Assembly (NCBI GenBank): GCA_004297545.1
Contig: SCTB01000123.1
Span: 20,630 to 84,629 of the forward strand
DNA: 64,000 nucleotides
Source: Alphaproteobacteria bacterium
Lineage (GTDB): Bacteria; Pseudomonadota; Alphaproteobacteria; Micavibrionales; UBA2020
Direction of reading: 5' to 3'
The position numbers and the translations under genes are program-made. The notes under the pieces are model-generated. The model was given only the letters and a program-made list of their open reading frames with translations, was not told where the DNA came from and ran no database searches. Shown here piece by piece: positions 12,508 to 56,247 of this stretch; the first letter of the stretch is position 1; each line of letters begins with the position of its first letter.

Positions 12508-12516
12508 CAAAACGTC

Positions 12517-12620
12517 GTCATGCCCGCCTTGCGCGGGCATCCGGAGCGTGTCTACGCGTCATATGACTCATATGCGCGGCGGACGCCACGCGCCGGATGC
12601 CCGCGCAAGGCGGGGGTGAC
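12517..12620. repeat. Nested-palindrome intergenic element (GTCATGCCCGC...GCGGGCATCCGG type)
   Basis: gtcatgcccgccttgcgcgggcatccgg ... ccggatgcccgcgcaaggcgggggtgac. Inverted arms, each a hairpin. Confidence 0.8.
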
Positions 12621-12633
12621 GGTAAGGTCTGAT

Positions 12634-22549: not shown

Positions 22550-22646
22550 GTCACCCCCGCGCAGGCGGGGGTCTGGCCGCGCACCTGCGCGCATTTATAA
22601 ATTGCGGCGTCGCCGCTTGCCGGATGCCCGCCTTCGCGGGCATGAC
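22550..22646. repeat. Full-length bipartite nested-palindrome element (GTCACCCCCGC hairpin - TTTATAAA core - GCCGGATGCCCGC hairpin)
   Basis: gtcacccccgcgcaggcgggggtctggcc...catttataaattgc...gccggatgcccgccttcgcgggcatgac. Same architecture at 44920..45016 and, inverted, at 48668..48765. Confidence 0.85.
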
Positions 22647-22648
22647 GG

Positions 22649-22945
22649 CTATTTGCAAATTTCCTCGTACAGGCCTTTCCAGTCTGGATTCATTCCTTCA
22701 ATCACCCTCATTTTCCATGGCCTGTTCCATTTTTTCAGTCTCTTCTCCCGCGCAATTGCTGTTTTGGGATCGGAATAAATTTCATAGTAAACGAGCTTGT
22801 TTATTCCGTACTTTTTTGTAAACCCATCTGCAACAGCGTTTTTGTGCTCCCAGGTTCGTTTTACGAGGTTAGATGTAATGCCCACGTAGAAAGTGCTGTT
22901 TCTGTCTTTTGCCAGTATATAAACATAGAATTGATCTTTTGCCAT
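22649..22945 (-). CDS. Small stand-alone GIY-YIG (URI-domain) nuclease family protein
   Basis: FYVYILAKDRNSTFYVGITSNLVKRTWEHK...AIAREKRLKKW gives the GIY..YIG, R and E motifs. 98 aa. AT-richer than flanks. Confidence 0.85.
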   Translation of the reverse strand: MAKDQFYVYILAKDRNSTFYVGITSNLVKRTWEHKNAVADGFTKKYGINKLVYYEIYSDPKTAIAREKRLKKWNRPWKMRVIEGMNPDWKGLYEEICK

Positions 22946-22975
22946 GCGTAGTCCTTTATACGCGCTATCGCGCTG

Positions 22976-23003
22976 GCCGGATGCCCGCCTTCGCGGGCAT
23001 GAC
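22976..23003. repeat. Half copy of the bipartite element; 29-bp perfect direct repeat of 22619..22647
   Basis: gccggatgcccgccttcgcgggcatgacg is identical at 22619 and 22976, in the same orientation, bracketing the GIY-YIG gene. A tttata core remnant precedes it. Confidence 0.85.
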
Positions 23004-23008
23004 GCCGA

Positions 23009-23599
23009 TCAGGGATTCAACCTTGTCATTTCCCACCCGTCTTTAAATCGGGAAAACAGGAAGCGGTCGTGCAACCGGCCTTCGCCCTCGAGCCAGAATT
23101 CTATTTTATCCGGCGCAAGGACGAAGCCGCCCCAGTGCGGCGGGCGGGGTATTTCCTGCCCCTTGAATTTCTGGGAAAAAAGCCGCACGCGTTCTTCCAG
23201 TTCGTCCCGGGTTTCCAGGGGCTCAGACTGGCGGCTGGCCCAGGCGCCGAGGCGGCTTAAGATATGCCGCGTCTTGAAATAGGCGTCCACCGCCCAGGCG
23301 GGAACTTGAGTCACCTGGCCCTCCACCCGCACCTGCCGGTGCAGGGTCTTCCAGTGGAAGCACATGGCGGCGCTTTGGTTATGTGAAAGTTCTTTCGCCT
23401 TGCGACTTTCCAGATTCGTGTAGAAGCGGAAACCTTCCTTATCCACGCCCTTGAGCAGCACCATGCGCACCGATGGCCTCCCTTCCGGCGAAACCGTAGC
23501 GAGCGCAACGGCTTCAGGGTCATTGGGTTCGGAAACGGAGGCCTCGGTCAGCCATTCCTTAAATAATTCAATCGGGTCCTGGGAGCGCAGGATTTCCAT
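23009..23599 (-). CDS. pdxH: Pyridoxamine 5'-phosphate oxidase
   Basis: RMVLLKGVDKEGFRFYTNLESRKAKEL, IEFWLEGEGRLHDRFLFSR, C-terminal RLNP. Confidence 0.9.
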   Translation of the reverse strand: MEILRSQDPIELFKEWLTEASVSEPNDPEAVALATVSPEGRPSVRMVLLKGVDKEGFRFYTNLESRKAKELSHNQSAAMCFHWKTLHRQVRVEGQVTQVPAWAVDAYFKTRHILSRLGAWASRQSEPLETRDELEERVRLFSQKFKGQEIPRPPHWGGFVLAPDKIEFWLEGEGRLHDRFLFSRFKDGWEMTRLNP

Positions 23600-27082: not shown

Positions 27083-27230
27083 CTCCTCTCCCCCGTTCGC
27101 GAAGCGAATGGAGGGAGAGGATTAAGGTGAGGGGGTGTTTCAGCAAAAACAGCCAGTTGTATTGTTGCACCGCCCCCTCACCCTGACCCTCTCCCTCCCG
27201 CTTCGCGGGGGGAGAGGGGATAAATGGCTT
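27083..27230. repeat. 'Empty' pair of G/C-rich hairpinned inverted-repeat arms (same superfamily as the cargo-carrying elements)
   Basis: The left arm ...ctctcccccgttcgcgaagcgaatggagggagaggattaaggtgagggggtg and the right arm caccgccccctcaccctgaccctctccctcccgcttcgcggggggagagg... are reverse complements separated by only 40 bp. Confidence 0.75.
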
Positions 27231-35757: not shown

Positions 35758-36396
35758 TTATTTCGGCTGCGGCGGCGCGGGCGGTTTCGGCTGCGGGCGG
35801 CGCGCGATTTTATCGTTCAGATCGTCGATATCGACTTCGGCAATAATGCCGCGCGCCTTGTATTTGGGTATCTTCCAGAATTCGCGCAGGACCGCGCTGC
35901 GGAAACTGCGGTCGGAAAACCATTTGTCGCGATCCGCGCCGAAAGTATTGGGCGCCGTGAACATCTTTGTGACCGACGGCCAGTGTTTTTCCAGCGTCAT
36001 CAGGAAGCGTCGCGAGCCATGTATCTGCCCGATGCCCAGCACGGAATGGATTTTGCCGAACTCCTTCGTATTTTTCAGGAGCTGCATCGTTTCGATCACA
36101 TTCTCGCCCGTGTTCGTGGCCTTATCCTCGACGCGGATGGCGCTTTCCGGCACGCCCAGCGCGACGAGCCTGTCATGCATCTGATGGCATTCGAACGTGC
36201 CCTTGCTGGTCGGCACGCCGCCCGAGACGACGATCAGCGGAAAATAGCCCTTGTGATATAAATCCGCCGCGCGCTCCGCCAGCGCATCCGCCTGCTCGCC
36301 GCCGAACAGCAGGCACAGGTCCGCCTTCGCGAGACGCGTTTCGACGAGCATGTACTCGCCAACTTTTTTCAGGAATTCTTCCGTTAACTTTTTCAT
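35758..36396 (-). CDS. YdcF/ElyC (DUF218) family protein
   Basis: LIVVSGGVP...GVPESAIRVEDKATNTGENV signature. C-terminal tail ...RRPQPKPPAPPQPK. Confidence 0.7.
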   Translation of the reverse strand: MKKLTEEFLKKVGEYMLVETRLAKADLCLLFGGEQADALAERAADLYHKGYFPLIVVSGGVPTSKGTFECHQMHDRLVALGVPESAIRVEDKATNTGENVIETMQLLKNTKEFGKIHSVLGIGQIHGSRRFLMTLEKHWPSVTKMFTAPNTFGADRDKWFSDRSFRSAVLREFWKIPKYKARGIIAEVDIDDLNDKIARRPQPKPPAPPQPK

Positions 36397-36767
36397 TTAA
36401 TTTCCTTTGCCGAAGGCAAAGTCGTCAGTCCCCTCTCCCTCTGGGAGAGGGCTAGGGTGAGGGTACTTACAACACCCTCCAGATTGTCCTCCACTTCATT
36501 ATTCCAGAAGCGGATAACTTCATACCCAAGCTTATTAAGATATTTTGTGCGCGCCGCATCCTTCTTGCTCTCGCAATGTTGCCCGCCATCAACTTCAACG
36601 ATCAGTTTAAGTTCGAGGCATACGAAATCGGCGATGTAAGGACCAATAGGAAGCTGGCGGCGGAAGATGTACTTCAAATGATCATTGCGAAGGCAATTCC
36701 ACAACAGACACTCCGCATCTGTCTGCTCCCGTCGTAGCTTCCGCGCTCTTTGAACAGACTTTGCCAT
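36393..36767 (-). CDS. DUF559 (Vsr-like fold) endonuclease-domain protein
   Basis: RARKLRREQTDAECLLWNCLR...FRRQLPIGPYIADFVCLELKLIVEVDGGQH...KTKYLNKLGYEVIRFWNNEV. Start ATG 36765-36767. The C-terminal about 20 aa is read-through of the left arm, and the stop overlaps the ATG of 35758..36396. Confidence 0.8.
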   Translation of the reverse strand: MAKSVQRARKLRREQTDAECLLWNCLRNDHLKYIFRRQLPIGPYIADFVCLELKLIVEVDGGQHCESKKDAARTKYLNKLGYEVIRFWNNEVEDNLEGVVSTLTLALSQRERGLTTLPSAKEIK

Positions 36768-36850
36768 TTTACGTTCTTCCGTAGGTAGTACCCTCACCCT
36801 AGCCCTCCCCCAGAGGGGGAGGGGACTAACGACTTTCGCTACGCGAAAGG
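36404..36850. mobile_element. Inverted-repeat-bounded cassette carrying a DUF559 endonuclease gene (no transposase)
   Basis: The 64-bp arms at 36404-36467 and 36787-36850 are reverse complements: cctttgccgaaggcaaagtcgtcagtcccctctccctctgggagagggctagggtgagggtact versus cctttcgcgtagcgaaagtcgttagtcccctccccctctgggggagggctagggtgagggtact. Differences are compensatory within the local hairpins. The interior is AT-richer. Confidence 0.75.
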
Positions 36851-36879
36851 AAATATAATCCTTAACTTGCAGCCCTGAC

Positions 36880-41342: not shown

Positions 41343-42821
41343 TTAACTCGCTATCCCCGCCTCTTTCCCCATCGCCTGCGCGAGGCGGTCGAGGGAGCGG
41401 CCGATGACTTCGGCGTTCAGCATGTGGGAGCCGGGGTCGAGCTTTAGGGTCAGCTTCTGCGGCGTGACGACGAGGCTGCTGTCTTTGAGCAAACTTAAAG
41501 CGCCCCCCGTCAGCAGATATCCCATGCGCTGCGCGAGGCCGGCCACGACCGCAGTCATCGTCATTTTCTCGTCGATGAGCTTGGCCGTGATGTTATGCAC
41601 CGTTTCCGCATCGTCGCCCATGTAGCGCGCGTATTGCATCAACGCCAGGAACGCGCGGCCCGGGTGGTCGATGCCGTAGAAGGGCATGACGAGGATGCGC
41701 TCGAAAGCATGGCGCGCCTGATAGTCTTCATGCTCGAACCAGCTGATATCGGAGAGCAGGCAACCCGCCTGCAACAGGCGCTGCGTCTTCGCGTCTTCCT
41801 TCGCGAAGAGGGGCGACATCCAGCGCGAGAGCGCCGTAAAACCCTCGACATCGCCGAAGCGGCTGACCTGCCGCGCCACCTTGCGGCAGGAGGCGATCAG
41901 CGCGTCTTCCTTCTGCGTATCGGGCGACAGCACGTCATAGAGCATCCCTTCGCGCAGGCCGGTGCCGGAAAATATCAGGCGCGACGGTTTCAGCACCTCG
42001 AACACGCGATGCATGGCCAGCGCCGCCACGCCCATGTCGTGCAGGCGCTTTTCCATCATGCCCACGGTTTTCTGCAGGGACGCCACGCTCTGGTTTGAAA
42101 TCAGCTCCGCGAATTCGGCGGCCTTTTTTCCCTCGACCGTATAATGGTCGAGCACATGCAGCGGGTGCTTGACCATATGCATATGCGCGCGCGCCATCGA
42201 TCTCCACGCGCCGCCCATGGCATAGAAATCCTTGCCGGTCAGGTTCTGCAGGAACGGCAGGGCCGCGAGATGATCGTCGATGGCCTTCACGCGCGCGTCC
42301 CGCGTCTTGATGGCATGCAGCCGGTGCGCGCCCAGGGGCAGGCTCGCCTTGTGTCTTACAATATCGTTCTCGATGACGATCAGTTCCAGCGAACCGCCGC
42401 CGTAATCGCCGATAACACCCTGCGCGCCGAGGCCGTTCATCATGACGCCGTGGGCGGCAAGCCGCGCTTCCTCCTCCCCCTCGATAATCCGGATCTCGAG
42501 CCCGAAGTCGTCTTTCACTTTTTTGATGAAAGCCGCGCCGTCCGCCGCGTCGCGCATGGCGGCCGTGGCGACCGCCCGCACCTGCTTGATTTTCATGGCG
42601 CGGATGAGGCCCGCATAGCGCCCGATGGAATCGAGCGCCGCCGTGATGCCCTCGGGGTTCAGCTTGCCGGTGGTGGCGAGATGCTTGCCGAGATGGCACT
42701 GCGTGCGCTCATTATGGATTTTAAACGGGGCGCGGTTCAGCCCGTCATAGACCACAAGCCGCACGGCGTTGGAGCCGATATCGATGACGGCGACATAATC
42801 TTTTGTGGTTCCTTCAGGCAT
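41343..42821 (-). CDS. ppx: Exopolyphosphatase (Ppx/GppA family)
   Basis: VAVIDIGSNAVRLVVYDG..., IGDYGGGSLEL (ASKHA fold phosphate motifs). 492 aa. Confidence 0.85.
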   Translation of the reverse strand: MPEGTTKDYVAVIDIGSNAVRLVVYDGLNRAPFKIHNERTQCHLGKHLATTGKLNPEGITAALDSIGRYAGLIRAMKIKQVRAVATAAMRDAADGAAFIKKVKDDFGLEIRIIEGEEEARLAAHGVMMNGLGAQGVIGDYGGGSLELIVIENDIVRHKASLPLGAHRLHAIKTRDARVKAIDDHLAALPFLQNLTGKDFYAMGGAWRSMARAHMHMVKHPLHVLDHYTVEGKKAAEFAELISNQSVASLQKTVGMMEKRLHDMGVAALAMHRVFEVLKPSRLIFSGTGLREGMLYDVLSPDTQKEDALIASCRKVARQVSRFGDVEGFTALSRWMSPLFAKEDAKTQRLLQAGCLLSDISWFEHEDYQARHAFERILVMPFYGIDHPGRAFLALMQYARYMGDDAETVHNITAKLIDEKMTMTAVVAGLAQRMGYLLTGGALSLLKDSSLVVTPQKLTLKLDPGSHMLNAEVIGRSLDRLAQAMGKEAGIAS

Positions 42822-42882
42822 GACAACCCGTTGCTGCTTCGATATAGTTTATACAGCATTTTATACGACAGGCTATAAGGAA

Positions 42883-43386
42883 ATGAAAACGCTCTGCCTG
42901 CTCAGGCACGCCCATTCCGACCACGCCACGACGCCCGACATGGACGACCATGACCGCATCCTGTCGGCGCGCGGGCAAAGGGAGGCCGAGAATGTCGGCG
43001 CCTTCATGAAAGAGCAGCGCATATTGCCCGACGCCATGTTCTGCTCCTCTTCCGTGCGCACCGTCGAAACCGCGCGCATCGCCTTCGCGGAACTTTTCAG
43101 GGGCGGCATGGATTCGCTGGCGAGCCGCTTCGACCGCGACTTCTACCTCGCCCCGCCCGAGGTCATCATGGACGAGGTGCGCGAGGCGGATGACCGCTAC
43201 AGCCACATCATCGTCGTCGGCCACAACCCCGGGCTCGAAGACCTCGCCGAAAAACTCGCCCGCGGCAGCGACCAGGTCATCGGCAAATTCCCGCCCTCGG
43301 CGCTTGCCGTCTTCACCTGCGACGTCGATAAATGGCAGGACTTTTCGCCCAAGAAGGCGCAGCTGAAAACGGTGTTTATGCCGTAG
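42883..43386 (+). CDS. Histidine phosphatase family protein (SixA-like)
   Basis: LCLLRHAHSD (RHG-type motif), ...CSSSVRTVETA..., ...IVVGHNPGLEDL. Start ATG 42883. Confidence 0.7.
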   Translation: MKTLCLLRHAHSDHATTPDMDDHDRILSARGQREAENVGAFMKEQRILPDAMFCSSSVRTVETARIAFAELFRGGMDSLASRFDRDFYLAPPEVIMDEVREADDRYSHIIVVGHNPGLEDLAEKLARGSDQVIGKFPPSALAVFTCDVDKWQDFSPKKAQLKTVFMP

Positions 43387-43477
43387 CGTACTTTTCCTCA
43401 CCCTCTGGGTGAGGAAGGGGCCCGCGCCGAAGGCGTGGGAAGGTGGGGGTACTTTGTGCAGGGATTGGAATGATTGA

Positions 43478-43918
43478 ATGACGACGATAAGTAAAGAGCT
43501 GAAGGAGCTATTTGCGAAGATCAATTCGACAGCGGATTTTTGTTACGTTGAATTCTCAGATGTCAATACGACGAATGCCTTGGGTGAGAACGCCCTTCAT
43601 ATTGCTGTTAGATGGGGCGAGATTGACGCCGTAAAACTGCTGATTTCGTCGGGAGCCGACATTAACAAACACGGTGAATACGGATACACCCCTCTTCATT
43701 ATGCAGCCGAATGCGGCTACCAAGAGATAGTAAAACTGCTACTTGATTCAGGGGCAAACCCGTTCGCCCGCACCGAAGGAGATATACCATCTACATTGGC
43801 ACGATTTAAAGACAATAAGACCATTTGTGATTTGTTAGATGAGTACATGCGTAAGTCGCCGTACCGGCCCAAAGGGTGGATATTCAGCGGAGAAGACCTT
43901 ATAAACCGGAAAGACTAA
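43478..43918 (+). CDS. Small ankyrin-repeat protein
   Basis: GENALHIAVRWGEIDAVKLLISSGADINKHGEYGYTPLHYAAECGYQEIVKLLLDSGANP. Confidence 0.8.
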   Translation: MTTISKELKELFAKINSTADFCYVEFSDVNTTNALGENALHIAVRWGEIDAVKLLISSGADINKHGEYGYTPLHYAAECGYQEIVKLLLDSGANPFARTEGDIPSTLARFKDNKTICDLLDEYMRKSPYRPKGWIFSGEDLINRKD

Positions 43919-43946
43919 ATCGTGTAAAAATGGCGGAGCTTGAAAC

Positions 43947-44300
43947 ATGGATGTAAAAGTTATCACACTCCCCACCGATCAGATTACAGACTGGAATAGC
44001 TTTCATTCCGTGTGTAAGGACGTTTTTGGTTTTCCAGACTTCTACGGCAGGAATATGAATGCTTGGATTGACTGCATGACCTCCGTCGATTGCGCGGAGG
44101 ACGGCATGACGACTGTAAATGTTGCTGATGGAGGGCTATTAGTTATCAGAGTCGACAATGCAGCAGAATTCAAAAAGCGTTGTCCGGAAGAGCATGAAGC
44201 ATTGATAGAGTGTGCAGCTTTCGTAAACTATCGGCGCATAGACGTTAAGGGGCAGCCTGTTTTGGCGCTCATGTTAATAGGCGATTATCCGAACCCATAG
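43947..44300 (+). CDS. Barstar-like ribonuclease-inhibitor family protein
   Basis: I..W..FH....DVFGFPDFYGRNMNAWIDCM matches the barstar N-terminal signature (FP.YYG.N.DA..D). 117 aa. Confidence 0.55.
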   Translation: MDVKVITLPTDQITDWNSFHSVCKDVFGFPDFYGRNMNAWIDCMTSVDCAEDGMTTVNVADGGLLVIRVDNAAEFKKRCPEEHEALIECAAFVNYRRIDVKGQPVLALMLIGDYPNP

Positions 44301-44379
44301 AATTCATTGCACGGAGTACCCCCACCTTCCCGCGCTTCGCGCGGGCCCCTTCCTCCCTCAAAGGAGAGGAGAAAAAATT

Positions 44380-44603
44380 GTCGTCCCGGACAAGTGAGGC
44401 CGCAGGCCGAACGCTGAGCCGGGATCCAGCAGTTACTCGCGCCGCGAGGCGCTCATCAAAGACGAACCGCTGCGCGGTTCGAATTCACTCCTGGGTCCCG
44501 GGTCGGGCGCTTCCGCCTACGCCAAGGCTTCGGCGGACGAGAAACTCTCGCCCTCCATAGCTTTAGCGAAGGAGGGTCGCGTTGCTCGCTGGCCCGGGAT
44601 GAC
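44380..44603. repeat. Composite multi-hairpin palindromic element (GTCGTCCCGG ... CCCGGGATGAC termini)
   Basis: Termini gtcgtcccggacaagtgagg / ctcgctggcccgggatgac are inverted. Internal hairpins: cgaaccgc-tgc-gcggttcg, tccgcc...ggcgga, ccctcc...ggaggg. Confidence 0.7.
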
Positions 44604-44618
44604 AATGATTTTTGATTA

Positions 44619-44810
44619 TTAGAGAGTCTTCAGAAACATCCGCACGCGCGTGACCGGGGTGCCGTTGCTGTTTCTGGCGAAGAGGACCACGCAGGCGATA
44701 AACACGCCGACCGCGCCGGCCACGACCGAGGCCGCGAAGGCTTTGGAGACGACGCAGCCAGCCATAATGGCAAGCGACATGAGCAGATTGAAGTTGATGC
44801 TGGCGAACAT
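44619..44810 (-). CDS. Possible small two-TM membrane protein (63 aa)
   Basis: GGAG 8 nt upstream. MFASINFNLLMSLAIMAGCVVSKAFAASVVAGAVGVFIACVVLFARN.... Confidence 0.4.
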   Translation of the reverse strand: MFASINFNLLMSLAIMAGCVVSKAFAASVVAGAVGVFIACVVLFARNSNGTPVTRVRMFLKTL

Positions 44811-44919
44811 GGTATATCTCCCCGTATTTGGTATCGGAGTACAATGCCGTGAGTCGCGGATTCTGTCAAATGTGAAATTTTAAGAGGTTGGTTTTGTTTG
44901 ATTATTTTCAAAAATTTAC

Positions 44920-45016
44920 GTCACCCCCGCGCAGGCGGGGGACTGGCCGCCGCCGCAAGGCGGCCTTTATAAAGGCGCTTCGCGCGGGCCGGATGCCCGC
45001 CTGAAGCGGGCATGAC
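44920..45016. repeat. Full-length bipartite nested-palindrome element
   Basis: gtcacccccgcgcaggcgggggactggcc...cctttataaagg...gccggatgcccgcctgaagcgggcatgac. Ends 6 nt before the priA stop. Confidence 0.85.
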
Positions 45017-45021
45017 GAAGG

Positions 45022-47235
45022 TTAAAAGAAACTCTGCGGGTCGATATCGACCTTCAGTTGCAATGACGACGGCACTTTGACCGCAGCCAGCCATTCGGCC
45101 AGGTATTTCTGCAGCGGAATCGCCTTGTTCGCCTTGATAAGGAACCGGCGGCGGTGACGGCCGCGCAGGTAGGCCATGGGCGCCGGCGCGGGGCCCAGCA
45201 CGCGGATGTCGTCATACCTCGGCGCTTTCTGCGCAATCGTGCGGCAGAAGAGGTCGAGCTTCATTTCGTCCGCACCCGCGAGAATAAGCGCAGCTAACCT
45301 CCCAAACGGCGGCATCCCGGCCTTTTCGCGTTCGCGCGCTTCCACAGCCAGAAAATCATCGCGGTCGTTTTTCGCCAGCGCGCGTATCACGCTTTGCTCG
45401 GGCATATAGGTCTGCAGATAGACGCGTCCCGGCAGTTCGCCGCGGCCCGCGCGGCCCGAGACCTGGTGCAGCAGCTGAAACGTGCGCTCGCCCGCCCTTA
45501 AATCGCCGCCGGATAATCCCAAATCCGCATCGATCACGCCCACGCAGGTCAGCGCCGGGAAGTGGTGGCCTTTCGCGATGATCTGCGTGCCGATAATCAC
45601 GTCATGCTTGCGATCTTCGATATCGCGTACCGCGCCGCGGATCATATTGGGGCTGGTGATGACATCGCTGGCGAGAATAAACGTGCGCGCGGTCGGCATC
45701 AGCGCCGCGACTTCTTCCTGAATCCTTTCCACGCCGGGGCCGCAGGCGGCGAAACTGTCTGCTTCGTTGCAAGAGGGGCAGGTTTTCGGCACCGGCTGTA
45801 AAAACCCGCAGTGGTGGCATTGCAGGCGCGAAAATCTTTTGTGCTCCACCAGCCAGGCGCTGCACGACGGGCACTGGAAACGAAAGCCGCAGGTGCGGCA
45901 CAGCGTTAAGGGCGCATAGCCGCGGCGGTTCAGGAACAGCAATGACTGTTCGCCCGCCGCGAAAGTTTCCTGCAGCGCTTTTTCCAGCACCGGCGCGATA
46001 AATTTCCCGCGCGCGGGCAGCGCGGATTTCAGGTTGATGACATGGATAGCGGGCATTTTCGCGCCGGCATGCCGCGCGGGGAGTTTCAGGTAATGGTATT
46101 TTCCCTGTTGCGCGTTCACCATGGTTTCCAGCGACGGCGTCGCGGAGACGAGGACGACCGGAAAGCTCCCCAGTCGCGCGCGCACGATCGCCATATCGCG
46201 CGCATTGTACAGCACGCCTTCTTCCTGCTTGTAGGACGCGTCATGTTCTTCATCGACCACAATCGCGCCGAGATTGGCGAAGGGCAAAAACAATGCCGAG
46301 CGCGCGCCGACCACGACTTTGGTTTTTCCTTCCGCCACGCCGGCCCAGGTCACGCGACGCTGCGCCGTGGGTACTTCGGAATGCCAGAGCGCGGGCGCGG
46401 CGCCGAAGCGGCGTTCGAACCGCTCGAGGAACTGGGCGGAGAGGGAAATTTCAGGCAGCAGGATCAGCGCCTGCCGTCCCTGCCGTATCGCCTCCGCCAC
46501 GGCTTCAAAATAAACTTCAGTCTTGCCGGAACCCGTCACGCCATCCAGCAGCACGGTGGAAAATTTGTTTTCGCCCGCCAGCTTGCGCAAGGCATCGGCG
46601 GCGGATTGCTGGTCTTTCGAAAACGACAGCGCGCTGTCGCCCGTGTCAACCTCGCGGCAGGGCGCTGGCGCGGAAACCGGGCGTATCATCAATTGCCCCG
46701 CCGCCGCCATGGAGCGGATGAGGGCCGCGCTGCAGCCCGCTTCCCGCGCGATATCGACGGCGCGGCGCGGCAGCCCGTCCTTCAGCAGGTTGACGATTTT
46801 CTGGCGCGCGGCGGGAAGTTTTTCGGGGATGTTTTCGTTCAGCGTATAGGCATTGGCCGATTTGGGCGGCTGCAGCGCTTCGGGTGCGCTTAAGGACATC
46901 TTGAGCACCGAGCCGAGGTCGGACATGGTGTAACGCGCGACCCATTCGAGGAACTGCCGGTGCGTCTGCGGCATCGCCTCGAAGGCATATTTCTGCTGCA
47001 CATGCTTGAGTTTCGCGGGGTCCACATTATCTTTGCCATCCAGCGTCCAGACGACGCCGGGCGTGTCCCGCCTGCCAAGGGGAACCCTTACATAATCTCC
47101 GGGCTGCGCTTCCATGCCGTCGGGCAGGAGGTAATCGTAAGCCCTTGATAAAGGATAGGGGACCAGCACCTGCGCCCGTCTGCCGGATTTGGGCGTTTCG
47201 CCCGCTATTAAAAGGCTAGATTGGGACATGGCCAT
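45022..47235 (-). CDS. priA: Primosomal protein N' (replication restart helicase PriA)
   Basis: Walker A LLDGVTGSGKTEVY, DEEH box (VVDEEHD), Cys-rich zinc region (CRTCGFRFQCPSCSAWLVEHK...CHHCG). 737 aa. Confidence 0.95.
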   Translation of the reverse strand: MAMSQSSLLIAGETPKSGRRAQVLVPYPLSRAYDYLLPDGMEAQPGDYVRVPLGRRDTPGVVWTLDGKDNVDPAKLKHVQQKYAFEAMPQTHRQFLEWVARYTMSDLGSVLKMSLSAPEALQPPKSANAYTLNENIPEKLPAARQKIVNLLKDGLPRRAVDIAREAGCSAALIRSMAAAGQLMIRPVSAPAPCREVDTGDSALSFSKDQQSAADALRKLAGENKFSTVLLDGVTGSGKTEVYFEAVAEAIRQGRQALILLPEISLSAQFLERFERRFGAAPALWHSEVPTAQRRVTWAGVAEGKTKVVVGARSALFLPFANLGAIVVDEEHDASYKQEEGVLYNARDMAIVRARLGSFPVVLVSATPSLETMVNAQQGKYHYLKLPARHAGAKMPAIHVINLKSALPARGKFIAPVLEKALQETFAAGEQSLLFLNRRGYAPLTLCRTCGFRFQCPSCSAWLVEHKRFSRLQCHHCGFLQPVPKTCPSCNEADSFAACGPGVERIQEEVAALMPTARTFILASDVITSPNMIRGAVRDIEDRKHDVIIGTQIIAKGHHFPALTCVGVIDADLGLSGGDLRAGERTFQLLHQVSGRAGRGELPGRVYLQTYMPEQSVIRALAKNDRDDFLAVEAREREKAGMPPFGRLAALILAGADEMKLDLFCRTIAQKAPRYDDIRVLGPAPAPMAYLRGRHRRRFLIKANKAIPLQKYLAEWLAAVKVPSSLQLKVDIDPQSFF

Positions 47236-48642: not shown

Positions 48643-48667
48643 GTCCAGTTATAATCACTTTATAGGC

Positions 48668-48765
48668 GTCATGCCCGCGAAGGCGGGCATCCGGCACACG
48701 GCAACGCCGCATTGATAAAAGCGCACTTTCGTGCGCTGCCAGACCCCCGCCTTCGCGGGGGTGAC
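48668..48765. repeat. Full-length bipartite nested-palindrome element (inverted orientation)
   Basis: gtcatgcccgcgaaggcgggcatccggc...attgataaaagc...ccagacccccgccttcgcgggggtgac. Confidence 0.85.
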
Positions 48766-48780
48766 GTCGAGGGGAAAGAC

Positions 48781-49728
48781 GTGAACGAAACGACACCCAT
48801 CTCCGCCGCTGCCGACCTCTCGGAAAAATTCGACGCGTGGGTAAACTACCTCACCCACGAAAAGCGTTTCTCGAAACACACCCTGCGCGCATACATCGCG
48901 GACCTGCATTATTTCTTCGAATTCATGACAAGACATCTGGGCAGGCCGCCGTCGATGAACGACCTGGGCGATATCCGGTTGCAGGATTTCCGCAGCTGGC
49001 TGACCAAGAAGATGGTCGAGGGCTCCGGCGCCGCGACGCGCTCGCGGTCGCTGTCCAGCGTGCGGAATTTCATGACATGGCTGGACAAGAACGGCTATCT
49101 GCATAACCCGGCCATCGGCAATATCCGCACCCCCAAGCTGCCCAAAAAACTGCCGCGGCCCTTGTCGCCGGATCACGCCAAAAACGTCATCGCGCATGCG
49201 GATGAAATTCCGAAGGAAGAAAACCACTGGACCGGCCTGCGCGACCGGGCGCTGTTCATGCTGCTCTACGGCTGCGGATTGCGCATCGACGAGGCCTTGA
49301 AACTGAATTACGGTACGCGCCCGCAGCAGGGCGAAGTGCGCGTGATGGGCAAGGGCTCGAAGGAGCGCATGGTGCCCGTCATTCCCGTCGTCGACCGGAT
49401 GATGGGCGAATATATCGCCGCCTGCCCCTTCCCCTTCGAACGCGACACGCCGCTGTTCATGGGCGCGCGCGGCAAGCGGTTGAACCAGGGCGTCGCCCAG
49501 CGCGACATGCGCAATCTGCGCAAGTCTATCGGCCTGCCCGAAAGCGTGACGCCCCATGCGCTGCGCCATAGTTTTGCCACCCATATTTTGATCAACGGAG
49601 GCGACCTGCGCACGATTCAGGAACTTCTCGGCCATGCTTCAGTTTCAACCACCCAGCGCTATACGGATTTCGACAACGCACAGTTGATGCAGATCTACAT
49701 GAAGGCTCACCCCCGCGCGAAAAGCTAA
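48781..49728 (+). CDS. xerC: Tyrosine recombinase XerC
   Basis: LRAYIADLHYFF core-binding domain. Catalytic R...HALRHSFATHIL..G.DLRTIQELLGHASVSTTQRYT. Start set to GTG 48781 to exclude the translated repeat. Confidence 0.85.
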   Translation: MNETTPISAAADLSEKFDAWVNYLTHEKRFSKHTLRAYIADLHYFFEFMTRHLGRPPSMNDLGDIRLQDFRSWLTKKMVEGSGAATRSRSLSSVRNFMTWLDKNGYLHNPAIGNIRTPKLPKKLPRPLSPDHAKNVIAHADEIPKEENHWTGLRDRALFMLLYGCGLRIDEALKLNYGTRPQQGEVRVMGKGSKERMVPVIPVVDRMMGEYIAACPFPFERDTPLFMGARGKRLNQGVAQRDMRNLRKSIGLPESVTPHALRHSFATHILINGGDLRTIQELLGHASVSTTQRYTDFDNAQLMQIYMKAHPRAKS

Positions 49729-53343: not shown

Positions 53344-53355
53344 CATCACTCTTCT

Positions 53356-53456
53356 GTCATGCCAGCGAAAGCTGGTATCTCTGAAATTTAAAATCATCCC
53401 CGCTCCGCGGGAATGTCCCTATTAAATAGAGCGATGCCAGCTTTCGCTGGCATGAC
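53356..53456. repeat. Nested-palindrome intergenic element (GTCATGCCAGC type)
   Basis: gtcatgccagcgaaagctggtatctct ... agagcgatgccagctttcgctggcatgac, with a central hairpin tccccgc-tcc-gcgggaa. Confidence 0.8.
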
Positions 53457-53485
53457 AATATATCCGGGGTGAAGTTCGGGATAGC

Positions 53486-54547: not shown

Positions 54548-54783
54548 GGCTTTAGGGTCAGCGATCTGGTCACGTGTTAAGGTTTTGGAACTGGGACGAA
54601 CCGTATAGACGGAGGGCGGCGGAGTCAACCCGCCTTGGCCGGTATAACGGTTTGTTTTTGCTCAGCATTTGAATGACACTGATTTTCAGTTGAGCGGCTG
54701 TTCGGTTTATGTTAAATTTGAGCCGGAATACCCCGGCAAATCAAGGCGCTGCGGGAACAAAGAAACAGTCACCAAGAGGGTGC

Positions 54784-55557
54784 ATGCCAGCACAGGATTT
54801 CAAGGACGCCGCTGCCCGGGACCAGTTCAAGCTGGAAGTGGCGCGGTTCTTCTCCTCCGTCTCCGCCAACGAGGTGGACGGCGTGCTGAAATTCGTCATG
54901 AACCACCCGAAGGAAGCAGCCACGCTGAAAAGCAGCGATGGCATCACCGCGCTGATGTTCGCCGCGCGCGAAGGGTATAAAGAGACCGCCTGGCTGCTGA
55001 TCCATGCCGCGCCCCAGGACCTGGAGGTCGGCAACGCCAATGAATCAACCGCGCTGATGTTCGCGGCCCATGCCGGCAAGGCGACCATCGTGGCCCTGCT
55101 GCTGGAAGCGGGCGCCGACGTCAACCACGTCAACAAGAACGGCCATACGCCGCTGATGTCGGCCTCCGCCAACGGCTTTAAAAACACAGTCGAGCAGCTT
55201 TTGAAATTCAATGCCGACATCACGCCCAAGGACGCCGAGGGAAATACCGCGCTGGATTACGCGCGGGAGAACGGCTTTACCGACATCGAAAAAATGATCG
55301 CGACCGCCGCCGTGACGCAGCAGGCGGTGCGCGAGAAGGCTGCCGCAGAGGCCAAAGCCCGCGCGGTGGAGGAAAACCGCCCCATCATCTCCGACGACAA
55401 CGGCGAGTCCCTCAAAGACCTCGAGCGCCGCATGATGAAGGCGAATCTCGCCTATCCCGTCAAGCCGCAGGACGACCCCGACAAGGCGAAAGACGACGCC
55501 AGCGCCGCCGAAGCCCGCCGGGTACTGAAAGATCTTTCCAAGGATATGGGGCGGTAG
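54784..55557 (+). CDS. Ankyrin-repeat protein
   Basis: ITALMFAAREGYKETAWLLIH...; STALMFAAHAGKATIVALLLEAGADVNHVNKNGHTPLMSASANGFKNTVEQLLKFNADI...GNTALDYARENGFTDI. Confidence 0.8.
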   Translation: MPAQDFKDAAARDQFKLEVARFFSSVSANEVDGVLKFVMNHPKEAATLKSSDGITALMFAAREGYKETAWLLIHAAPQDLEVGNANESTALMFAAHAGKATIVALLLEAGADVNHVNKNGHTPLMSASANGFKNTVEQLLKFNADITPKDAEGNTALDYARENGFTDIEKMIATAAVTQQAVREKAAAEAKARAVEENRPIISDDNGESLKDLERRMMKANLAYPVKPQDDPDKAKDDASAAEARRVLKDLSKDMGR

Positions 55558-55560
55558 CCG

Positions 55561-56243
55561 CTCTCCTCCCCTTTGGGGGAGGAAGGGGCCCGCACGAAGT
55601 GCGGGAAGGTGGGGGGTACTCCGTGCAACAGAGTGGCTGGTTAGAAGTTTAAATCACGACTGAACACGAATGCTCATGAGTCTTCTGAGTGTCAATGCTT
55701 CTTCCGAAAAATCGAGCTCATTTTGCGCTTTTTGGCCCGTGCAATATTAGCAACCACGCTTCGTACAGCTTCGCCAATGTGCAGGGCAATAAACTACGTG
55801 CCCATTGTCTTTTGTGTTTTTTAGTATCGTTGAAGTTTAACTCCTCGACAAACGAAACATCGATTGCATTTTTTAAATCATCATTACCGTTTTCGTAGGC
55901 CCACTCTGCCAACTTATACGCTTTTGTCACTTGCTCCCGGTCACCAGAATCTATCAGCTGTTGCACTAATCTGCGAAAGACCGCCATTTCAAAATGAAGT
56001 AAACCTTGTTCCTTGTTGATTTCCAGCTCAACTGCGGGAAATGTTGCCTTTAGCTGTTTGAGAAATTCACTCCTATGGACTTTTGTCATTTTTTCCGGCG
56101 CCCCCGCCCGTTTTCCACAATCTACTTTATCATTCATTCATTTTTATTCGTAGTTCAAACTATTCACTATCTATGTAACTTCACAGAGTACCCCCACCTT
56201 CCCGCACTTCGTGCGGGCCCCTTCCTCCCCCAAAGGGGAGGAG
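55561..56243. mobile_element. Inverted-repeat-bounded cassette carrying one AT-rich orphan gene (no transposase)
   Basis: Left arm: ctctcctcccctttgggggaggaaggggcccgcacgaagtgcgggaaggtggggggtactccgtg. Reverse complement of right arm: atctcctcccctttgggggaggaaggggcccgcacgaagtgcgggaaggtgggggtactctgtg. Only 2 differences. Fills the gap between two convergent stops. Confidence 0.8.
55718..56089 (-). CDS. Hypothetical helical protein (123 aa), cassette cargo; immunity-protein-like by context only
   Basis: MTKVHRSEFLKQLKATFPAVELEINKEQGLLHFEMAVFRRLVQQLIDSGD...NAIDVSFVEELNF. Markedly AT-rich. An alternative upstream ATG at 56137 exists. Confidence 0.5.
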   Translation of the reverse strand: MTKVHRSEFLKQLKATFPAVELEINKEQGLLHFEMAVFRRLVQQLIDSGDREQVTKAYKLAEWAYENGNDDLKNAIDVSFVEELNFNDTKKHKRQWARSLLPCTLAKLYEAWLLILHGPKSAK

Positions 56244-56247
56244 ATTC

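Follow-up and report, generated by a model that had tools for sequence, protein, structure and literature searches.

The ankyrin and barstar gene pair at positions 43392–44375 of the window (the whole 64,000-nucleotide stretch of DNA that was analysed) is probably carried by a cargo-loaded, composite palindromic repeat of the BoxC/PIT/TM type with resident arms and an exchangeable centre, a reading to which we assign a probability of about 0.55. Because relatives keep the arms and carry other genes, or none, between them, the repeat appears to act as an unstable docking site and not as a classical transposon. The core of the arm is the known BoxC/PIT/TM motif, whereas long arms with a second hairpin (H2), genes lodged between facing motifs, turnover of the cargo, and a link to DUF559 appear to be new. 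The features that bear on this reading are as follows.

42805–43386, plus strand: upstream host gene, SixA-like histidine phosphatase
43392–43460, plus strand: left arm (arm profile E = 5e-15, and fold)
43396–43416: H1 hairpin of the left arm, CCTCACCC-TCT-GGGTGAGG
43421–43440: H2 hairpin of the left arm
43437–43459: G-rich inner end of the left arm, GGGAAGGTGGGGGTACTTTGTGC
43478–43918, plus strand: cargo gene 1, 146-aa ankyrin-repeat protein (Pfam Ank, 6e-21; low GC)
43947–44300, plus strand: cargo gene 2, 117-aa barstar-family protein (PF01337, 3e-15; PDB barstar, 3e-3)
44308–44375, minus strand: right arm, the inverted partner of the left (GCACGGAGTACCCCCACCTTCCC, H2′, H1′; profile E = 4e-15)
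55562–55627, plus strand: arm of the second element, adjoining the host ankyrin gene at 54709–55557
55718–56137, minus strand: cargo of the second element, 139-aa DUF7674 protein
56180–56244, minus strand: partner arm of the second element
36395–36469, plus strand: short-type arm of the third element (outer hairpin H0, H1, then GGGCTAGGGTGAGGGTACT)
36393–36767, minus strand: cargo of the third element, DUF559 (Vsr-like PD-(D/E)XK nuclease)
36782–36859, minus strand: partner short-type arm of the third element
27083–27230, no strand assigned: empty palindrome, a distant relative (inner end GGTGAGGGGGTG)
48712–49728: XerC/D-like recombinase gene beside DUF484, conserved in relatives

The ankyrin and barstar genes are enclosed by two inverted arms of about 66 nt each, between which a repeat search paired 43433–43460 with 44308–44335 (28 nt, 89% complementary) and 43402–43427 with 44339–44364 (26 nt, 88% complementary). 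Each arm folds into two local hairpins, with z = −3.6 for the left arm (equalled by 0 of 200 shuffles) and z = −2.5 for the right arm (equalled by 2 of 200), and the inner end GGAAGGTGGGGGTACT occurs three times in the window against an expectation of 0.28, a count of three or more being reached in 0 of 100 shuffles. A preliminary description of this DNA had proposed reverse-complementary arms of about 66 bp, and their position, two hairpins, and inner end are borne out, except that the H2 hairpins of the left and right arms are not exactly complementary. The near-identical arms that it had placed around a second cassette are likewise present at 55562–56244, where they are 100% complementary over 54 nt and enclose the DUF7674 gene, the product of which gave no meaningful match in a PDB sequence search. 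The related arm subtype around DUF559 is also real and consists of shorter, 73-nt arms at 36395–36859 (86% complementary); the DUF559 ORF runs through the left arm, which encodes its C-terminal tail. The empty pair at 27083–27230 proved to be related only distantly, with its differing inner end, an extra hairpin nested in H1, and no match to the arm profile. A GIY-YIG gene is also flanked by another palindromic repeat, at 22614–23009.

Known since the 1990s and found in hundreds of genomes, BoxC/PIT/TM motifs are tied statistically to unstable loci, and we know of no established mechanism or role for them; BoxC, the PIT elements, and TM_ECO were reportedly treated by Hoyne et al. in 2000. Judged by its letters, the core of the arm, a hairpin CCCTCTCCC/GGGAGAGGG followed by GGGTGAGGG, corresponds to this intrastrand-triplex motif, which is defined by a Watson–Crick hairpin with a homopurine strand and a following G-rich block that allows G·G:C, A·A:T, and T·A:T triads. 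The earlier statement that no described element has this arm architecture consequently does not hold, the core being already known as BoxC/PIT/TM_ECO (PMC4666352). All arms contain H1 plus GGTG(A/G)GGG, with six to nine of nine triads allowed (mean 7.6), a fit of the third strand to its own H1 that is barely better than its fit to the H1 of other arms. Covariation between third strand and H1 was uninformative, with too few variant classes. The ITxF definition places loops of 1–6 nt between the three blocks; the short arms at 36395–36859 have 3-nt loops, and the arm at 36395–36469 reads as a canonical BoxC/TM-type triplex motif, whereas the second loop of the long arms (43392–44375 and 55562–56244) spans about 25–30 nt and includes H2. 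For the E. coli motif, TM_ECO/BoxC, triplex formation has been demonstrated in vitro by CD and NMR, rearrangements between E. coli strains are far more common at its loci than at control loci, and palindromic pairs of the motif often decay to a hairpin (PMC4666352). A G-quadruplex formed by the G-runs of the arms is possible on paper and was set aside; the same G-blocks make up the documented triplex motif, and they appear to fit a triplex, shown experimentally for the E. coli motif, better than a G-quadruplex.

The preliminary description had taken the arms to define a family with loaded and empty copies, none encoding its own recombinase, and this was confirmed within and beyond the window. 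A metagenome scan yielded 18 loci, mostly empty palindromes of 140–200 nt with the same H1–H2–inner-end order, and in a genome scan, both Alphaproteobacteria MAGs and Azospirillum yielded paired copies; for cultured Azospirillum, the count is at least 411 places across 47 PLSDB replicons. Loaded copies comparable to the ankyrin and barstar element occur in five other data sets; in most copies, the facing motifs lie only about 30 nt apart, and the inner end, not the outer tip, is the most conserved part of the arm. Very similar empty copies are present at different loci both in single metagenomes and in Azospirillum, which points to multiplication of the palindrome as a whole. The genome-collection scan gave no match to the exact GGGGG-type long arm, a subtype restricted to the window's own uncultured lineage. 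Viral contigs gave chance 16-mer matches and one weak partial arm (L148, E = 4e-6), with no full-length arm among them. The H2 hairpin is maintained as a structure: 95.8% of its cells are paired, compared with 48–64% in slid controls, and two-sided changes occupy 33 cells, compared with 10.2 ± 3.9 in shuffles, a value reached by 0 of 500.

All copies are intergenic, and all three of the window loci differ among relatives, in which filled, empty, and collapsed states were found. In the relative L007 (Ppx 93% at the amino acid and 89% at the nucleotide level), the same locus-specific left arm lies straight after the SixA stop codon, and the alignment with the window continues through this arm and ends at 43459, beyond which both the small ORF and the right arm differ from those of the window. 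At the second locus, L146 (70% aa) keeps the arm beside the host ankyrin gene and carries a different AT-rich ORF of 136 aa as cargo, and in L145 (83% aa), the whole element is represented by exactly one H1 hairpin between two orthologous flanks, a hairpin type with no other occurrence in 58 kb of arm-free relatives. This solo hairpin could be a pre-insertion target instead of a deletion footprint; L146, however, speaks for an element that predates that split. The elements are absent from L003 and L005, the DUF559 element being missing in the former and reduced in the latter to a solo H0 hairpin. In an empty copy compared between the orthologs L008 and L018, the 31-nt centre is inverted, while the distinct left and right H2 hairpins have not moved. 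Comparison of these loci shows that the arms stay at an intergenic site for a long time, whereas what lies between the inner ends is unstable and has been replaced by a different gene, inverted, or deleted until a single hairpin was left. The idea of an element that moves genes therefore needs revision: the arms persist over long divergence, the cargo is swapped, inverted, or deleted between them, no cargo was seen at two sites, and no target duplication was seen at 20 elements. An AT-rich gene lies just beyond an arm in L008, so insertion is not strictly central.

The cargo of the ankyrin and barstar element is AT-richer than its surroundings, as had been noted (45–50% GC, compared with 60–63% in the flanks), and profile searches against Pfam confirmed the two gene identities. 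The cassette is neighboured by the SixA-like gene, Ppx, and PriA; the SixA-like stop codon precedes the left arm by 5 nt, and the ankyrin start codon follows the arm by 18 nt. No sigma-70-like promoter was found upstream of the ankyrin gene, and in six of six loaded copies the cargo runs in the same direction as the host gene upstream, here the SixA-like gene, from which the cargo is probably transcribed by read-through. In the barstar-like protein, the equivalent of Asp39 is kept and that of Asp35 is Asn. The identical protein occurs only in this organism's own data, the next homolog being 68% identical, and homologs of 55–68% identity in four other contexts are solitary, with no arms, no ankyrin gene, and no barnase, so the cargo is not intrinsically tied to the arms. 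The cassette lacks a toxin gene, as stated before, and the immunity-family domains are thus confirmed with no toxin gene adjoining them, unlike in a polymorphic-toxin immunity cassette; PADLOC made no defence-system call apart from generic ankyrin similarity. The label of defence- or immunity-type cargo suits the ankyrin and barstar domains and is too narrow for the family, which also carries DUF7674, the DUF559 nuclease, and proteins of secreted or membrane type that have no Pfam match. It is plausible that the ankyrin protein and the barstar-like inhibitor are self-protection genes in a Micavibrio-like predator.

Each arm consists of the homopurine-strand hairpin H1 and the G-rich third strand GGTG(A/G)GGG, two such motifs face each other, and the long arms contain the extra, structure-conserved H2 within the second loop. 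In the mechanism that we infer, the palindrome and its triplex-prone structure would provoke replication stalling or breakage at the centre, followed by template switching and by gene conversion or short-homology recombination that involves further arm copies, whether these reside in the same genome or arrive on incoming DNA. Foreign genes that are small and AT-rich would settle between the inner ends and be exchanged there, and such captured genes, having no promoter of their own, would be expressed by read-through from a co-oriented upstream host gene. The element itself would not be self-mobile, and a dedicated recombinase would be unnecessary. Several observations stand against a docking site of this kind: the arms, at about 65 nt, are short for RecA-dependent exchange, the entry of the first foreign gene into the centre is left unaccounted for, H2 (20–30 nt) separates the duplex from the putative third strand in the long arms, and the empty copies at many loci mean that the whole palindrome spreads somehow.

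Other explanations of the arms and their cargo differ in what they take the repeat to be. Rfam returned nothing at the gathering threshold, and microRNA matches at its E-value threshold were set aside as generic long-hairpin matches; Whalefall-1 (RF01762, gathering score 37 bits) scored 17.5–27.8 bits, with a best value of 27.8 at L008 and 17.5–17.8 for the DUF559 arms of the window, and its covariance model did not match 43392–43460 or 44308–44375. These sub-threshold matches share the layout of H1, a variable H2, and AGGGUGAGG, and, together with the strong covariation of H2 and the grading of Whalefall-1 by Weinberg et al. as certainly an RNA, they would suit arms that are primarily a functional RNA of the Whalefall-1 type (a stabiliser, processing site, or small RNA), the position of the cargo being incidental. 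Such a role is highly improbable given the both-strand symmetry, the inversion, deletion, and cargo replacement at the DNA level, and the documented DNA triplex; purine-motif triplexes are not formed by RNA, and PIT elements have neither terminator nor promoter activity (PMC4666352). An artefact of metagenome assembly, in which shared repeats led to the fusion of host sequence with AT-rich foreign DNA, is scarcely credible: the sequence comes from a MAG and the Logan assembly ends within the left arm, but an independent assembly of the same run continues from the cargo across the right arm into the right host flank (630 nt of it), all at 100% identity, and the loaded copies in five other data sets are comparable. 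A non-autonomous inverted-repeat transposon, that is, a MIC with MITE-like empty forms and a transposase encoded elsewhere in the genome, would account for cargo bounded by terminal inverted repeats, for the many similar empty copies at different loci, and for presence and absence varying among relatives. This is unlikely, given the lack of target-site duplications, the conservation of the inner end over the outer tip, the persistence of arms at two loci where cargo changes, and the confinement of the exact barstar to its own data. No Pfam match to a transposase or Y1-transposase (RAYT-type) was found among about 40 window ORFs tested, no transposase lies inside any of the six loaded copies, and Holder et al. 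(2015) saw no link of the motif to transposons, phages, or plasmids (PMC4666352). Similarity to IS5 ends (GGAAGGTG) with a CTAG target duplication in the short arms was considered and dropped, because H1 always accompanies the inner end and CTAG is absent from the long arms. The trans-acting transposase or recombinase suggested earlier did not emerge from the 64-kb window, whose sole recombinase gene, the XerC/D-like one next to DUF484, is conserved and of a housekeeping kind. An integron- or pdif-like system, in which a host tyrosine recombinase would act at the inner ends GGTGRGGGTACTYYGTGC to integrate circular cassettes and invert the centre, is very unlikely. The centre inverted between L008 and L018 would suit it, as would the promoterless, co-oriented cassettes and the order arm(+)–DUF559–arm(+)–centre–arm(−) in L017, as if a one-site circle had entered one arm, but template switching also flips hairpin loops without a recombinase. 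Reading of the arms for attC boxes (R″/R′ = RYYYAAC/GTTRRRY) and of the inner ends for a dif-like ATAA/TTAT core found neither, in agreement with the earlier judgement on both kinds of site.

Inside arms, DUF559 alone among the cargos recurs (36395–36859 of the window, L017, and L041), and its gene adjoins this class of repeat at 10 of 11 loci from several phyla, making it a candidate trans-acting factor. Among eight further PLSDB loci inspected, seven lie beside the repeat class; the neighbouring inverted repeats measure 114 nt (96% complementary) on pSymB of S. meliloti and 56 nt (98%) in Deinococcus, the class also adjoins DUF559 in Sphingomonas, A. brasilense, A. lipoferum, and Neisseria, the E. 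coli ycjD ORF enters a TM motif, and the Synechocystis DUF559 locus has no such repeat. DUF559 might accordingly be the mobility enzyme of the family, cutting empty palindromes at or near their centre, upon which arm-homology repair would copy DUF559 in; other cargo would be copied in trans, and the ankyrin and barstar element would be a passenger version of the DUF559 element. This is possible, though doubtful. In its favour, a group I intron homing endonuclease with the Vsr/DUF559 fold is known (PMC3424549), the window protein retains intact motifs of catalytic type (D...ExD..QH), and the palindrome-flanked GIY-YIG gene offers a parallel. Against it, most Dehalococcoidia copies of the motif have no adjoining DUF559 gene, the Azospirillum and E. 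coli genes lie next to the palindrome and not inside it, a Caulobacter DUF559 protein acts like a nuclease of the T:G mismatch-repair type (PMC12907096), the DUF559 arms are of the short type with an inner junction of TACAAC instead of YYGTGC, and no cleavage site is known. A broader and equally tentative proposal is a cross-phylum mobile system in which the DUF559 nuclease and palindromes with triplex or hairpin ends act together. In such a system, palindromes would multiply empty and be broken by the nuclease or by their own structure, and arm-based repair would make each copy a docking site at which small promoterless genes, for example ankyrin, barstar, and DUF7674, are installed or swapped, amounting to a recombinase-free functional analogue of integron cassettes and explaining why BoxC/TM loci are hotspots of variation.

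A docking site with resident arms would give the instability of BoxC/PIT/TM loci a concrete form, namely the gain, exchange, and loss of genes exactly between two facing motifs that persist. If general, it would provide a cheap, recombinase-independent route to acquire and shuffle small accessory genes, which in this predatory lineage are candidates for self-protection, and the recurrence of DUF559 would suggest a role, open to testing, for a very common domain whose function is not established. Experiments are feasible, since copies abound in cultured Azospirillum and E. coli has one at ycjD.

Compared with known systems, the elements resemble MICs and MITEs in their inverted ends around passenger genes without a transposase and in the dominance of short empty forms, but differ in that target duplications and a cognate IS were not found and that the arms remain as the cargo changes. 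With REPINs, BIMEs, and RIMEs they share a high-copy, intergenic, mosaic character and small hairpins in inverted pairs whose structure is kept while the sequence varies; they have no GTAG-type REP head, no RAYT-type match was obtained in the window, and REPINs are not known to us as gene carriers. Like integron cassettes, they exchange small promoterless genes at structured palindromic sites for probable expression from an upstream promoter, and pdif modules likewise have inverted bounding sites, each a 28-nt XerC–spacer–XerD sequence; the present copies, however, have no integrase, no attC R boxes, and no XerC/D core, and they are single and dispersed instead of arrayed. The likeness to homing endonuclease genes (Vsr-like I-Bth0305I; GIY-YIG) lies in a small nuclease gene set in a repeated target with flanking homology, of which the window holds both a DUF559 and a GIY-YIG example; the intron or intein context is lacking, the ankyrin and barstar copy has no nuclease, and cleavage of the palindrome is hypothetical. 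Whalefall-1 (Weinberg et al. 2010) is similar in its CUCUCC hairpin, variable second hairpin, and following AGGGUGAGG, but the scores lie below threshold and the ankyrin and barstar arms are unmatched. BoxC/PIT/TM motifs, like these repeats, are intergenic, spread over many phyla, arranged in inverted pairs that decay to a hairpin (as in L145), and located at sites rearranged between strains, and the short arm CCCTCTCCC-TCT-GGGAGAGGG-CTA-GGGTGAGGG is near-identical to TM_ECO, for example CCCTCGCCCCTCTGGGGAGAGGGTTAGGGTGAGGGG (PMC4666352, Table 1). Genes between two motifs, cargo turnover, and the association with DUF559 are absent from that paper (PMC4666352), and to the known core the long arms add a covarying 20–30-nt hairpin between duplex and third strand and a conserved TACTYYGTGC extension.

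The ankyrin–barstar segment of the window (43392-44375) is bounded by two arms that are complementary over 28 nt at 89% and 26 nt at 88%, each of which folds into two local hairpins, H1 and H2, and terminates on the cargo side in GGAAGGTGGGGGTACT, a 16-mer with three copies in the window against 0.28 expected. Between the arms lie genes for a 146-aa ankyrin-repeat protein (Pfam, 6e-21) and a 117-aa barstar-family protein (Pfam, 3e-15; PDB barstar, 3e-3), and the segment has a GC content of 45-50% compared with 60-63% for the genome. The arms, hairpins and cargo of the preliminary description are thus borne out by repeat search, folding and profile searches. The palindrome at 27083-27230, previously taken as a copy of the same family, is present, but shows only loose kinship to this arm type.

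Arms and loaded elements of the window
43392-43460, left arm of the ankyrin–barstar element, imperfect reverse complement of the right arm
44308-44375, right arm of the ankyrin–barstar element, imperfect reverse complement of the left arm
55562-56244, second loaded element, same arm type, arms 100% complementary over 54 nt, cargo a DUF7674 gene
36395-36859, third loaded element, shorter arm type, cargo DUF559

The same run has also been assembled independently, and two contigs of that assembly, 100% identical to the window, extend from the cargo across the right arm and on into flanking host DNA; the cassette is therefore not a join artefact, and an assembly error is very improbable. The start codon of the ankyrin gene lies 18 nt from the arm, no promoter-like site was found upstream of it, and the cargo follows the orientation of the upstream host gene in all six loaded copies. 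The same intergenic region carries further repeat types at 44376-44620 and 44919-45023 (TCCCGG...CCGGGA hairpins and the CGTCACCCCCGCGCAGGCGGGGG family), which are missing from the orthologous SixA–PriA spacer of the relative L003; repeats in general collect in this spacer.

The flanking Ppx gene finds its best named relatives among Micavibrio-like Alphaproteobacteria. At the first locus, the relative L007 (Ppx 93% aa; 89% nt over Ppx, SixA and the left arm) shares the left arm with its locus-specific CCTCACCC stem directly 3' of the SixA stop codon; similarity breaks off at ...GGGTACTTTGTGC, beyond which L007 carries another small ORF and another right arm. The more distant L003 (82% aa) and L005 (76% aa) have no element there. 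At the second locus, L146 (70% aa) keeps an arm beside the host ankyrin gene with a different AT-rich 136-aa ORF as cargo, and the element must be old because this more distant relative has it. L145 (83% aa) carries exactly one H1 hairpin between the same two stop codons, a hairpin with no other occurrence in 58 kb of arm-free relatives, and this arrangement is most readily explained by a deletion between 8-10-bp direct repeats in the two H1 stems. At the DUF559 locus, the element is missing in L003, and a solo outer hairpin alone is left in L005. In one empty element with orthologs on two contigs (L008 799-939 and L018 7284-7424; 88% nt), the 31-nt centre is inverted, although the distinct left and right H2 hairpins have not moved. 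Filled, other-cargo, collapsed and element-free states thus occur among relatives, and these sequence comparisons show the arms to be resident, with the DNA between their inner ends replaced, inverted or lost.

In L008 (70-795), an AT-rich 251-aa ORF without a Pfam match lies inserted immediately beyond the left arm of the empty element and is missing from the ortholog (L018 7246-7280), so foreign genes land beside these repeats as well as inside them. Another contig, L017, carries three arms at 429-905, in the order short (+), DUF559 (minus strand), long (+), 25-nt centre and short (-), a layout suggesting that a one-armed cassette has entered one of the arms of an empty element.

The exact GGGGG-type arm had no match among 185,000 species genomes, and a slightly relaxed inner-end pattern yielded 18 metagenome loci, nearly all of them empty palindromes of 140-200 nt whose halves, each in the order H1, H2, GGGAAGGTGAGGGTACT, face each other across an asymmetric centre of ~30 nt. 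The paired H2 hairpins of one element are usually unlike in sequence, yet base pairing is always kept: across 24 arms, 95.8% of cells pair, compared with 48-64% with slid partners, and two-sided changes occupy 33 cells versus 10 +/- 4 in shuffles. The broader pattern GGGAGAGG-N(4-34)-GGTGAGGGTACT recovered at least 115 loci, those listed including Dehalococcoidia, Planctomycetota, Acidobacteriota, Gamma- and Alphaproteobacteria and other groups; among the matches listed, paired long-type copies occur only in Alphaproteobacteria, cultured Azospirillum included, and a 168-nt Azospirillum copy as query hit at least 411 places in 47 replicons. In one metagenomic copy (L095), the cargo spans 2.1 kb, is lower in GC and has no Pfam match. 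Dehalococcoidia carry the motif GGGAGAGGGCTAGGGTGAGGGTACT in very high abundance (L133 5377-5640 and further loci of MAG CBDCOP01); its copies are mostly unpaired, include five tandem 66-nt units and have no adjoining DUF559. Arms grow by nesting of small palindromes; an extra hairpin is nested within H2 (...GCGCATGCGAAGCATGCG...) in L053, L095, L097 and the L007 right arm, and within H1 in L019.

We favour, at a probability of roughly 0.55, a docking-site mechanism, in which the palindromic, triplex-prone structure would cause stalling or breakage at the centre and template switching, the shared arms would offer short homology for exchange with other copies or incoming DNA, and foreign genes captured between them would be expressed by read-through. 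The preliminary description had instead proposed a cassette mobilised in trans, which is distinctly unlikely: the target duplication expected of cassette insertion is visible at none of 20 elements, and no transposase or Y1-transposase matched among ~40 window ORFs tested. The barstar-gene homologs found in other genomes lack arms. Site-specific recombination at the inner ends is compatible with the three-armed L017 and the flipped centre of L008/L018, but no fitting site or enzyme was found, the sole recombinase among the ORFs tested being a conserved XerC/D-like gene (48712-49728), and we consider it very unlikely; a purely RNA-level role of the arms is at least as improbable.

The main rival, unlikely as it is, is a homing-type mechanism driven by the DUF559 nuclease. 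No cargo but DUF559 recurs (window, L017 and L041), its fold has a homing-endonuclease precedent (PMC3424549), and the same repeat class adjoins seven of eight further DUF559 loci inspected (PLSDB; L173-L179 among the loci noted), with 114-nt inverted repeats at 96% on S. meliloti pSymB, 56-nt inverted repeats at 98% in Deinococcus, and further cases in Sphingomonas, two Azospirillum species, E. coli ycjD and Neisseria. The Synechocystis locus, the eighth, has no such repeat. However, most motif copies lack a nearby DUF559, and a Caulobacter DUF559 protein resembles a mismatch-repair nuclease (PMC12907096). Overall, of 11 DUF559 loci inspected from several phyla, 10 have BoxC/TM-type hairpin and GGGTGAGGG repeats flanking or abutting the gene; many of these are long inverted repeats, and the ORF often runs into the repeat. 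A second small nuclease gene embedded in a palindromic repeat encodes a 98-aa GIY-YIG protein (22614-23009, minus strand; Pfam, 5e-16); it has on either side a copy, in direct orientation, of a different REP-like palindrome, GCCGGATGCCCGCCTTCGCGGGCATGACG, whose family recurs at 12516-12621, 44989-45023, 48662-48767 and 53355-53457.

Barstar and ankyrin families were reportedly recognised by Zhang et al. in 2012 as immunity-protein types in polymorphic toxin systems. This part of the earlier claim holds for the ankyrin–barstar cargo, beside which, as had been noted, no toxin gene lies, but a general immunity-gene rule finds no support in the DUF7674, DUF559 and unknown secreted or membrane proteins. 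An ankyrin protein is reported to protect Bdellovibrio from its own cell-wall enzymes (PMC4686830). Together with this precedent and a Micavibrio-like lineage rich in ankyrin genes (gene tables of L003, L005 and L145), the immunity-type families make a self-protection role of the cargo plausible. GC-normal ankyrin-repeat genes (window 54709-55557; L003, L005, L145) adjoin SNase and Exo_endo_phos nuclease genes, and the many ankyrin genes beside nuclease genes may be relevant to predatory self-protection.

The ankyrin–barstar finding thus stands, and is of more interest than an ordinary repeat: pairs of BoxC/TM-type motifs, lengthened by a second hairpin, are persistent sites at which small genes are gained and lost. 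The literature searched held no description of genes between two motifs, cargo turnover or the association of DUF559 with BoxC/TM repeats, which is not proof of novelty.

The arm architecture, initially thought undescribed, is a variant of a known one. The short arm, CCCTCTCCC-TCT-GGGAGAGGG-CTA-GGGTGAGGG, is the BoxC / PIT / TM_ECO motif, a hairpin followed by a G-rich block, which the purine strand of the hairpin can bind to give an intrastrand triplex, as demonstrated in vitro (PMC4666352). The motif is found in >260 genomes, always intergenic and sometimes as inverted pairs; TM_ECO loci show far more rearrangement from one E. coli strain to another than do control loci, and palindromic pairs are frequently reduced to a hairpin (PMC4666352). 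In the ankyrin–barstar element, the long arms retain H1 and a third strand compatible with it, at 6-9 of 9 allowed triads, but differ in that H2 is inserted between the two. The same three-part consensus (CUCUCC hairpin, variable hairpin, AGGGUGAGG) recurs in Rfam Whalefall-1 (RF01762), against which arms of this repeat class score 17.5-27.8 bits, below the gathering score of 37, the ankyrin–barstar arms themselves giving no match. The Whalefall-1 "RNA" consensus resembles one arm of this DNA repeat class, and RF01762 may have to be reconsidered as a DNA repeat or triplex motif.
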